Below are positions 57,480 through 59,148 of a DNA stretch of 64,000 bases, one piece after another. The stretch is from a phage: assembly GCA_033239445.1 (NCBI GenBank), contig GCA_033239445.1_3953.1, one strand, 5' to 3'. Under the pieces are notes generated by a model. It worked only from the letters and a program-made list of their open reading frames with translations. It had not been told where the DNA came from and did not search any database. The position numbers were made by a program, and so were the translations under genes. Numbering within the stretch: position 1 is the first letter of the stretch; every line of letters begins with the position of its first letter.

Positions 57480-57550
57480 GAGCAGCATAAACCAACGGGT
57501 ACTCACCAACATCACTTAAGAGTCTTTGAAAAGGGTTTTTAAGTGATGCT

Positions 57551-57627
57551 CGGTAAGGTTCGGTTCGGTTGGGTGTGGTATGGTCTGGTATGGCTGGGTT
57601 GGGTCTGGTCCGGTTTGGTGAGGGTAG
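57551..57627 (+). repeat. GGTNN pentanucleotide-periodic array A (about 15 units)
   Basis: cggta aggtt cggtt cggtt gggtg tggta tggtc tggta tggct gggtt gggtc tggtc cggtt tggtg agggt; GGT recurs every 5 nt. Confidence 0.75.
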
Positions 57628-57630
57628 TTA

Positions 57631-57664
57631 GTCTCAGCTACATTAAAATGAGACTCACCTTTTT
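57631..57664 (+). terminator. rho-independent terminator
   Basis: gtctc-agctacattaaaat-gagac hairpin extended by ggtgag/ctcacc, followed by TTTTT. Confidence 0.55.
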
Positions 57665-57699
57665 AAAAGGTCTTTAAAGAGGGTCTTTTAATGAGGTTT

Positions 57700-57772
57700 C
57701 GCTAGGTAGGGTAGTGTCCGGTTGGGTCTGGTAAGGTCAGGTTAGGTAAAGTGAGGTAAGGGTGGATGGTAG
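57700..57772 (+). repeat. GGTNN pentanucleotide-periodic array B
   Basis: Follows conserved module aaaaggtctttaaagagggtcttttaatgagg; ends ggatggtagtagcc like array D. Confidence 0.7.
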
Positions 57773-57869
57773 TAGCCACGTTAAAAATCTACCAAGTTTC
57801 TAAAGAGTCTTCTGTTGAGGGTTCTTTACAAACAACTTAACAATCAACTAAAGTGTGGAGCTAAATGCT

Positions 57870-58457
57870 ATGAAACTGTTAAATATCAAAATCACTGGCA
57901 CTCGTCCTTTCCTGAGCCATGCTGATACTCTGTCAGACCCATTAAATCCTCTGACAAAGTATCACAAGTCTCTGTCTAGTAAACGTAAAAAGACTGACGA
58001 AGACTACGCTCTCTTAGCAGAGAGTCAACTGGTAACCTCTTGTTACTACGACGAGCAACTAGGTTTTGTTATGAACGGTGAGATGATTGAGGCTTGTATC
58101 AAGTCTGGTGCAAAACTCAACAAACTTGGTAAGGTAATTGACCGAGCCATTATGCTGACAGATGTAGTCTTCCCAATGACTATTAAGAACTGTCCAGCAA
58201 ACCCACAAGAACTAGCTAAGAACCAAGACTTTATCTATGCGAAGTCTGTTAAGATTGGCACAGCACGAGTTATGAGCTACCGTCCAATCTTCCGTGACTG
58301 GTCTGTAGAGTTTGGTTTGATGTTCGATGAAGAACAAATTACCAAAGAAGAACTCTTGATGGTTCTGGAAAATGCTGGCAACCTTTGTGGTGTAGGTGAT
58401 TGGCGTCCACGCTTTGGTCGTTTTTCTGTAGAAGTTATTTCAGAAGGTAATGTTTAA
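57870..58457 (+). CDS. hypothetical protein
   Basis: ORF-track frame 57855-58457 (GTG) trimmed to ATG at 57870 with SD ggag. Confidence 0.55.
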
Positions 58458-58459
58458 TT

Positions 58460-58900
58460 ATGAATACAAAAGCATTAGCAGCAAAGTTCAGTTACGGTGA
58501 TACTGTATCACACTCTGAGATGGACACCTTCTTAGGTATTGTGAAGCCGACTTATCAAGGTGACATTGTTAAGTACGAAGATGAAATGAAAGCTTACGCA
58601 CTTACACGCCTAAATCGACTTGAGAAGTTTATTGAGAAGCTTCTTAAAGAAGAGAAGATTTATCTGGTCACTTCAATGGGTGTTGGTTATCGTGTGGTGG
58701 AACCTAAACATCAAGCAACTATTGCAAAACGTAAAATGTCTAGTAAGATTGGTCGTGCTTTAAAGCAAGCCACTCAAGCGATTGAGAATGTGAACACTAT
58801 GGCACTTAGTCATCAAGAACGTTCACGACTGATTGAACAGCAAAACCATTTAGCTGCCATGAAAGCTAACATTAACAAACAACGTAGAAAACCTTTCTAA
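58460..58900 (+). CDS. hypothetical protein
   Basis: 146 aa ORF. Confidence 0.55.
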   Translation: MNTKALAAKFSYGDTVSHSEMDTFLGIVKPTYQGDIVKYEDEMKAYALTRLNRLEKFIEKLLKEEKIYLVTSMGVGYRVVEPKHQATIAKRKMSSKIGRALKQATQAIENVNTMALSHQERSRLIEQQNHLAAMKANINKQRRKPF

Positions 58901-58908
58901 GTTAGATA

Positions 58909-58935
58909 GGTAGCCTCTTCGGAGGCTCCTTTTTA
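58909..58935 (+). terminator. rho-independent terminator
   Basis: agcctc-ttcg-gaggct hairpin followed by CCTTTTT. Confidence 0.65.
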
Positions 58936-58965
58936 AAAGGTCTTTAAAAGGGTCTTTTAATGAGG

Positions 58966-59013
58966 CTGGGTTTGGTCTGGTTCGGTGTGGCAAGGTGGGG
59001 TTAGGTATGGGTA
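58966..59013 (+). repeat. GGTNN pentanucleotide-periodic array C
   Basis: Follows second copy of module aaaaggtctttaaaagggtcttttaatgagg; tail gggtagttaatcggagctacat parallels array A. Confidence 0.7.
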
Positions 59014-59043
59014 GTTAATCGGAGCTACATAAAAATTCGATTA

Positions 59044-59148
59044 CATCACTTAAGAGTCTTTGAAAAGGGTTTTTAAGTGATGTTTGGTCGGGTGTGGTTC
59101 AGTCAGGTAAGGTTGGGCGAGGTCAGGTCGGGTGCGGAAGGATGGCAG
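59044..59148 (+). repeat. second copy of the 10-bp-stem hairpin (59044-59082) followed by GGTNN array D (59083-59148)
   Basis: Hairpin catcacttaa ... ttaagtgatg identical to 57510-57548; array ends ggatggcagtagcc. Confidence 0.7.

Follow-up and report, generated by a model that had tools for sequence, protein, structure and literature searches.

The region at positions 57452–59217 of a 64,000-nucleotide stretch of phage DNA (NCBI GenBank assembly GCA_033239445.1, contig GCA_033239445.1_3953.1; hereafter the window) is very probably (about 0.93 by our estimate) a type II Viral Interference Programmable Repeat (VIPR) locus, with four arrays of pentameric repeats as its guide RNAs (vrRNAs). The window derives from a Felix O1-like myophage; the queried region shares 99.5–99.7% identity with Sf17, Sf18, and Sf19 (Shigella phages) and about 91% with Escherichia phage SUSP2. 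The locus lies downstream of the DNA ligase gene, as in phage SUSP1, and contains the genes vipr and vap1, with two vrRNAs upstream and two downstream of them (Table 1). All four vrRNA units share one plan, in which a hairpin "head" is followed by the pentamer array and then by a pseudoknot "tail". Judged by its 99% protein identity to the SUSP1 counterpart, this would be essentially the same, already known system with a different guide complement; new in the window are all four guide codes and the 2 + 2 layout.

VIPR has been described as a phage-encoded ancestral RAMP protein (Vipr) that acts with an accessory gene (vap) and vrRNAs (bioRxiv 10.64898/2026.04.26.720920; structural companion 10.64898/2026.04.26.720927), each vrRNA being composed of 9–16 YNNGG repeats and a conserved pseudoknot tail (bioRxiv 10.64898/2026.04.26.720920, 10.64898/2026.04.26.720927). 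In SUSP1, four RNAs of ~100 nt, encoded one upstream and three downstream of vipr-vap1, co-purified with Vipr; one Vipr protomer occupies each repeat, with G1, G2, and Y3 buried and the two variable bases (NN) presented (10.64898/2026.04.26.720920,.720927). The NN bases pair with DNA such that every third target base is skipped, and the resulting gapped R-loop/triplex represses transcription (10.64898/2026.04.26.720920,.720927). The evidence from SUSP1 comprises small RNA sequencing, co-purification, reporter repression, phage defense, and cryo-electron microscopy, and reprogramming of the NN bases altered the phenotype (10.64898/2026.04.26.720920,.720927). Natural targets of the SUSP1 clade lie mostly in a satellite phage carried in E. 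coli genomes, with the skipped base at the codon wobble position (10.64898/2026.04.26.720920,.720927), and targets were identifiable for 20 of the 41 guides in the published set (bioRxiv 10.64898/2026.04.26.720920, 10.64898/2026.04.26.720927). Applied to the SUSP1 contig, our unit parser returned the published layout (one unit upstream, three downstream; 12 repeats in vrRNA1).

Table 1. Features of the VIPR locus (window positions) and of related elements in other records (positions in the record named).
Feature	Position	Strand	Details
Promoter P1, sigma-70-type, ahead of vrRNA A	57452–57479	+	TTGACA-16-TATACT; 11/12 consensus matches
Inverted repeat, candidate operator (possibly)	57468–57507	.	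covers P1 -10 element and transcript start; one copy in window, 0 expected by chance
Head hairpin H1, directly 5' of vrRNA A	57510–57548	+	39 nt, identical to H2
vrRNA A tract	57552–57621	+	14 units (13 GGT, 1 GGC); GGY 14/14; NN code AA TC TC TG GT AT CT AT TG TG CT CC TT GA
vrRNA A tail (t1a)	57622–57664	+	GTAG/CTAC and AGTCTCA/TGAGACT, then CACC, TTTTT
Head hairpin M1, 5' of vrRNA B	57665–57696	+	13-bp G.U-rich fold
vrRNA B tract	57695–57759	+	13 units (10 GGT; exceptions CGC, TGT, AGT); GGY 10/13
vrRNA B tail (t2b)	57760–57794	+	GTGG/CCAC and TGGTAG/CTACCA
Fifth head-motif copy, between vrRNA B and vipr start codon	57802–57827	+	motif search
vipr, 195-aa RAMP protein, predicted GGY-repeat binder	57870–58457	+	PDB 36pp match
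vap1, 146-aa VIPR accessory protein	58460–58900	+	97.9% identical to SUSP1 gene adjoining vipr
Intrinsic terminator 3' of vap1	58912–58934	+	terminator scan
Head hairpin M2, 5' of vrRNA C	58935–58965	+	motif search and RNA fold
vrRNA C tract	58964–59008	+	9 units (7 GGT, 2 GGC); GGY 9/9
vrRNA C tail (t1b)	59009–59042	+	GTAG/CTAC and AATCGGA/TTCGATT
Head hairpin H2, 5' of vrRNA D	59044–59082	+	39 nt, identical to H1
vrRNA D tract	59086–59135	+	10 units (8 GGT, 1 GGC, 1 AGT); GGY 9/10; NN code CG GT TC CA AA TG GA CA CG GC
vrRNA D tail (t2a)	59136–59170	+	AAGG/CCTT and TGGCAG/CTGCCA
Promoter P2 of downstream gene block, right edge of locus	59189–59217	+	10/12 consensus matches
Satellite copies	L030 9944–21900		equivalents in L031–L036, L039–L043
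Satellite vrRNA and REP-match observation	L030 19990–20120 and 24576–24614; L035 11499–11630
Orphan arrays, downstream of ligase gene	Felix O1 L003 1247–1400; BPS17W1 L004 1247–1540; ECOH1 L005 1250–1690, L037/L038

vipr and vap1

The product of vipr is identical at 193 of 195 residues (99.0%) to the "SUSP1 Vipr protein" of PDB 36pp, and all of the published residues that touch the GGY triplet and the skipped base (H17, K33, E71, M72, R138, C173, D177, W178, and R179) are kept at the same positions. An AlphaFold (AF2) model built from 56 homologues (pLDDT 95) has Csm3, Cmr4, and Cas7 as its best structural neighbours; the protein features a RAMP fold, an RRM core, a thumb, and a C-terminal glycine-rich loop (G-loop). 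Phage and metagenome data contain more than 500 Vipr homologues; the protein has no Pfam domain, and searches of PHROGs and Pfam with the products of both vipr and vap1 returned only matches of unknown function. Vap1 has no Pfam or PDB sequence match; in the SUSP1 clade, vap1 is an accessory gene with a predicted DNA-binding product (bioRxiv 10.64898/2026.04.26.720920, 10.64898/2026.04.26.720927). The first-pass annotation of this DNA, made from the sequence alone, had described the arrays and left unlinked to them the partner protein gene that lies between them (57870–58457).

A copy of vipr 99.5% identical to that of the window is carried by GenBank GU169904.1 ("Staphylococcus phage SA1"); this match suggests that Felix O1-like sequence forms part of that record.

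Pentamer arrays

All four arrays are present on the + strand, within a few bases of where the first-pass annotation had placed them. The triplet that it called invariant is a strong preference for GGT, with GGC and, rarely, TGT, AGT, or CGC as exceptions, giving the consensus GGY (Table 1). With 846 GGT per 64,000 positions, array-like runs are not expected by chance (an estimate from the counts), and neither in-phase runs of at least five GGT nor 60-nt windows with at least eight GGT were found elsewhere in the 64 kb on either strand. The G/U-rich tracts are predicted to be largely unstructured.

The GGYNN periodicity is kept in related phages, as 58 unique arrays from 24 related loci have an entropy of 0.2–1.0 bit at pentamer positions 1–3 and of ~1.9 bits at positions 4–5, with T (0.90) and C (0.10) at position 3. 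Between alignable array pairs, differences per site amount to 0.36 at NN versus 0.08 at GGY (4.5-fold). Across 28 related loci, the number of units ranges from one to five and both head types combine with both tail types, which bears out the earlier proposal that the modules have been shuffled; within arrays, duplications of the slippage type (5 and 10 nt) can be seen.

Targets in an E. coli satellite

The satellite is an element of ~12 kb whose products include a serine recombinase, tape measure and baseplate proteins, and an HNH endonuclease; a stretch of 1–2.6 kb in it is unannotated. It was found in 368 of 5,426 complete E. coli genomes (68–100% identity), inserted either in a DUF72 gene beside yecD or between tonB and yciI. 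We scanned the NN codes of the four window vrRNAs against 12 diverse satellite copies, allowing 0, 1, 2, or 3 skipped bases between successive dinucleotides.

With a one-base skip, vrRNA D matches at 20 of 20 NN positions the sequence CCGTGTTTCTCAGAAATGGGAGCAACGTGC in the serine-recombinase gene of the satellite of E. coli JNE131328 (L042 2162–2191), a gene whose product has Resolvase, Recombinase, and zinc-ribbon domains; the corresponding values in other satellites are 19/20 (L035) and 18/20 (L036 and L041). For vrRNA A, 21–24 of 28 NN positions match at one orthologous site in a 92-aa gene of 11 of the 12 satellites. Skips of 0, 2, or 3 bases and shuffled unit orders gave at most 21/28 for vrRNA A and 17/20 for vrRNA D. 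For both targets the skipped base falls at codon position 3 (wobble). The same register emerges across the family: among 56 unique arrays from the 24 related loci scanned against seven satellites, 37 reach an NN match of at least 80% with a skip of one base, compared with 5, 3, and 7 arrays with skips of 0, 2, and 3 bases, respectively. On the basis of these matches, we hold with high confidence that vrRNAs A and D would be directed at the satellite. Self-targets of at least 80% were absent from the 64-kb window, which this check covers while ~26 kb of the phage genome lies beyond; the best matches (18/28, 18/26, 14/18, and 13/20) are at background level.

The target matches bear directly on the proposal of the first-pass annotation that the transcript could be a sponge, which titrates a host or phage RNA-binding protein by means of its GGU motifs (CsrB acts on CsrA in this way) and has no sequence-specific content. 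The many GGU motifs in a G/U-rich, predicted unstructured tract would suit such a role, as would the persistence of arrays in relatives that lack vipr, and the idea stands insofar as the GGU triplets are protein-binding motifs. It fails in that the RNA serves as a guide: matches of the NN bases to satellite genes (86–100%) arise only in the one-base-skip register and in phase with the wobble position, the GGY-binding protein encoded in cis is a RAMP that builds guide complexes, and NN reprogramming at a constant GGU number is reported in the SUSP1 preprints to change the phenotype. We therefore consider a sponge very unlikely.

Several further candidates were rejected because each leaves the NN matches to satellite genes in a 3-nt register unexplained. 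These were sequestration of tRNA 3' ACC ends, modelled on the RNase P GGU motif; serial recognition sites for primase (GGGTC/TGGTC); G-quadruplexes of two tiers; a replication origin of the R-loop type; and GT-rich Chi/RecA hot spots.

Pseudoknot tails

The tails form two families of two subtypes each, and the pairwise sharing reported earlier (A with C, B with D) is upheld. All four fold as an H-type pseudoknot, in the order stem 1, 5' strand of stem 2, 3' strand of stem 1, A-rich loop, and 3' strand of stem 2. Compensatory changes occur in both stems. Relative to t1a, stem 2 of t1b shows compensatory changes and one G.U pair; among 15 variants of the t1 tails, 99.4% of cells are paired, with three compensatory pairs, whereas sliding the partner column lowers pairing to 24–35%. 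The t2 tails (four variants) are 100% paired, with three compensatory pairs between t2a and t2b. Over all tail controls, pairing with a slid partner column was 24–50%.

The strand specificity of the arrays, together with pairing that is kept via G.U and compensatory changes, points to a function at the RNA level, on the + strand; the first-pass view of the arrays as non-coding is upheld. The same evidence counts against a DNA-level element, put forward earlier as a protein-binding array, in which the repeats would be recombination hot spots or protein-binding sites that drive gain and loss of the vipr-vap1 cassette, with no RNA role. Such a reading would accommodate the presence or absence of the cassette between units in otherwise collinear phages, the variation in unit number from one to five, and the slippage-type duplications. 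Nevertheless, the arrays are strictly strand-specific, the pairing of heads and tails through G.U and compensatory changes makes sense only in + strand RNA, and the NN code matches external targets, as expected of a target address; recombination between units would be a consequence of the repeats and not a separate function. We thus regard a purely DNA-level role as extremely unlikely.

Transcription signals

The promoter seen earlier ahead of array A is P1, a strong one (11/12 consensus matches), and an exact 25-mer of P1 is kept in 22 Felix-like contigs of IMG/VR. The tail of vrRNA A ends as a hairpin followed by TTTTT (57660–57664), resembling the terminator previously assigned there; a simple terminator scan left it unflagged owing to its loop of 12 nt. 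The RNA of ~180 nt predicted from these signals is longer than the mature vrRNAs of SUSP1, reported as about 100 nt. P2 is present in all related loci and served there as end marker.

The inverted repeat GGTGAGTA-N24-TACTCACC, which overlaps P1, is possibly an operator. The Mooglevirus phages Sf16 and HP1, in which the entire VIPR region is missing, have another inverted repeat (CTGACGGGT...ACCCGTCAG) at the equivalent promoter (L028 and L029, about 2568–2616).

A promoter-to-terminator arrangement also invites a cis-acting leader or attenuator, in which a TRAP-like ring or filament protein on the triplets would control the terminator in tail A and read-through into the downstream genes. The 5-nt period is the same as that of TRAP sites, the last repeat of array A runs into the lower stem of the hairpin that resembles a terminator, and arrays lie between P1 and the genes. 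Against this, a T-run follows only t1a tails, which in the window means unit A alone; the downstream genes have their own promoter (P2), and units also lie 3' of genes. Moreover, the triplet is GGY and not (G/U)AG, the protein encoded in cis is a RAMP and not an mtrB-type ring, and the matches to external targets would go unexplained. An attenuator is therefore exceedingly improbable, and a binding site for a TRAP-like ring protein was likewise rejected, since it gives no account of the NN matches to satellite genes in a 3-nt register.

Head hairpins

Each unit begins with a hairpin. An identical hairpin before arrays A and D was already apparent in the first-pass annotation, and the identity extends over 39 nt (H1 and H2); the 10-bp stem assigned to it is, in the predicted RNA fold, a hairpin of 17–19 bp that includes G.U pairs. 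The fold of unit D has a z score of -3.6. Upstream of arrays B and C, the module AAAAGGTCTTTAAA(G)AGGGTCTTTTAATGAGG (M1 and M2) is conserved, as described earlier, and a fifth copy of the head motif, before vipr, forms by eye an 11-bp hairpin with two compensatory pairs relative to M. Both head types share the core RGTCTT-N4-8-RGGRTYYTT, which folds as a G.U-rich RNA hairpin. The motif occurs in five copies in the window (one per array and one before vipr); the rest of the window and ECOH1 are free of it.

A 5' hairpin is not mentioned in the text of either VIPR preprint (10.64898/2026.04.26.720920, 10.64898/2026.04.26.720927). The head hairpins are probably processing, stabilizing, or regulatory elements; the motif could be a processing site, a stabilizer, or an operator for Vap1.

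Proposed mechanism and points against it

We carry over three steps of the mechanism from the 99%-identical SUSP1 system. The units would be transcribed from the + strand to give RNAs of ~100 nt, each with a repeat tract and a 3' pseudoknot tail. Vipr, as a minimal RAMP/Cas7-like protein, would polymerize along the tract, flipping out and burying G1, G2, and Y3 while presenting N4 and N5. The NN dinucleotides would then pair with one strand of the target DNA, with every third base skipped, and the gapped R-loop/triplex would block transcription. We infer that the phage uses the VIPR locus to silence a satellite that parasitizes it.

Several observations weigh against this interpretation. Many relatives hold arrays in the absence of vipr, which a simple cis model does not explain. 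The match of vrRNA A tops out at 86% in the sampled satellites, and for vrRNAs B and C a search of the 12 satellites plus flanking host DNA (248 kb) and of 297 kb from related phages gave no target; the exact gapped patterns of B and C are also absent from IMG/VR, as is that of B from the GTDB species genomes. The lack of a target for B and C is in line with the published proportion of guides with identifiable targets (20/41). RNA expression and Vipr binding are known from SUSP1 only, the two preprints from which the mechanism is taken are pending peer review, and the published VIPR model accounts for neither the head hairpins nor the operator-like inverted repeat.

Orphan arrays and a satellite-borne guide

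Roughly 40% of the genomes in the Felix O1-like group, Felix O1 among them, carry one to three intact vrRNA units with neither vipr nor vap1, and Vipr is present in about 118 of 249 matching records. These orphan units number one in Felix O1, two in BPS17W1, and three in ECOH1. In the one vipr-less genome examined, the complete ECOH1 record, a profile search yielded no Vipr homologue, and there is no other GGY array. The idea that orphan arrays are relics, decaying in phages that lack vipr, is unsupported, given that GGY content is alike in orphan arrays (0.75) and in arrays adjoining vipr (0.77; p = 0.81). A satellite match of at least 80% was obtained for 8 of 12 orphan arrays and for 29 of 44 vipr-adjoining arrays. 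Frequent recombination between units could explain the vipr-less arrays.

Guide-like sequence is also found outside phage genomes, with vrRNA-like sequence in E. coli chromosomes in 141 of 5,426 genomes. Two of the 12 satellites (L030 and L035) encode one vrRNA each, with a phage-type t2b tail, its own terminator, and no vipr; this satellite vrRNA sequence occurs in about 134 E. coli genomes. The code of the variant examined has no target in the 12 satellites; at 21–23 of 26 positions it agrees with a palindromic unit of REP type that lies between cmoB and torZ. A perfect fit is seen between the first nine units of this vrRNA and the 30-mer GTAGGCCTGATAAGCGTAGCGCATCAGGCA, of which each of the 5,426 E. 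coli genomes has 7–46 or more copies. Neither orphan arrays nor a REP-directed satellite guide were found in the searched text of the two VIPR preprints.

It is conceivable, although on balance we think it unlikely, that elements with vrRNAs only act in trans on the Vipr of a co-infecting phage, and that the REP guide of the satellite is a decoy (an anti-VIPR RNA). If so, orphan guides would be free-riding weapons, the REP guide would divert the Vipr of the helper onto harmless host sites, and guide RNAs would circulate independently of the effector.

Other features of the window

Rfam models matched the region 57250–59300 only at chance level (E-values up to 10), and in the whole window gathering thresholds were passed by tRNAs alone. 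A cluster of 14 tRNA genes lies on the - strand at 51–2975, as is usual in Felix O1-like phages. Between two gene blocks, a 1.4-kb stretch at 13800–15250 has no open reading frames of at least 50 aa and is dense in short repeats with a 10–11 nt period (CTATATAG, (C)TTAACA(A/G)G, and CTATAAAG); its appearance suggests iterons, or else a regulatory or terminal region, and a smaller, similar repeat cluster occurs at 52078–52246. At 22605–22729, there is a tandem repeat with a unit of 41–45 nt in 2.9 copies (72–74% matches).

Significance and comparison with known systems

VIPR represents a second, structurally distinct mode of RNA-guided DNA recognition, serves phages as a weapon against satellites, and, by one proposal, is ancestral to the RAMP effectors of CRISPR. 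The window adds a natural locus with four new guides, two of which can be assigned targets in the satellite (its integrase gene and a small gene), and our scan replicates the one-base-skip code independently, by computation. That the guide arrays were picked out from raw sequence alone makes the locus chiefly useful to genome scans as a positive control, and the orphan arrays, the head hairpins, and the REP-directed satellite guide are concrete leads beyond the text of the preprints.

The locus resembles SUSP1 VIPR in its phage group (at genus level), genomic position, GGY/NN tract, two families of pseudoknot tails, and head types, as well as in having an E. coli satellite as target class and in the one-base-skip rule. 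It differs in layout (2 + 2 vrRNAs in the window, 1 + 3 in SUSP1), in all four NN codes, and in its backbone, which is that of a Shigella phage of the Sf17/Sf18/Sf19 type.

With the backbone proteins of class 1 CRISPR systems (Cas7/Csm3/Cmr4), Vipr shares the RAMP fold, RRM core, G-loop, and thumb, and the two systems have in common one protomer per fixed number of guide nucleotides, periodic base flipping, and a variable guide capped by a conserved handle. Unlike CRISPR, in which the period is 6 nt with five bases pairing, VIPR has a period of 5 nt, of which three are buried and two pair, and it reads its target with a gap after every two bases. Furthermore, VIPR is encoded by a lytic phage, Vipr is without a second RRM domain, and the genes of the locus are vipr and vap1 only; a CRISPR-type repeat-spacer array (direct repeats of 25–40 nt with contiguous spacers) was not found at the locus by tandem-repeat analysis or by eye.

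Two RNA-binding systems offer narrower parallels. The trp leader RNA bound by TRAP contains 11 (G/U)AG triplets spaced by 2–3 nt, each bound by one protein subunit; the vrRNAs share with it the 5-nt periodic triplets in single-stranded RNA and the ratio of one subunit per triplet. They differ in the triplet (GGY) and in the protein assembly, which is a helical RAMP filament and not the 11-mer ring of TRAP, and in VIPR the spacer bases carry information and the output is DNA targeting, not attenuation. The CsrB and RsmZ sponges likewise have many short, G-rich, protein-bound motifs per small RNA, but these are GGA motifs in hairpin loops, whereas the motifs in the window stand in a strict 5-nt register within an unstructured tract, and the RNA of VIPR guides rather than titrates.

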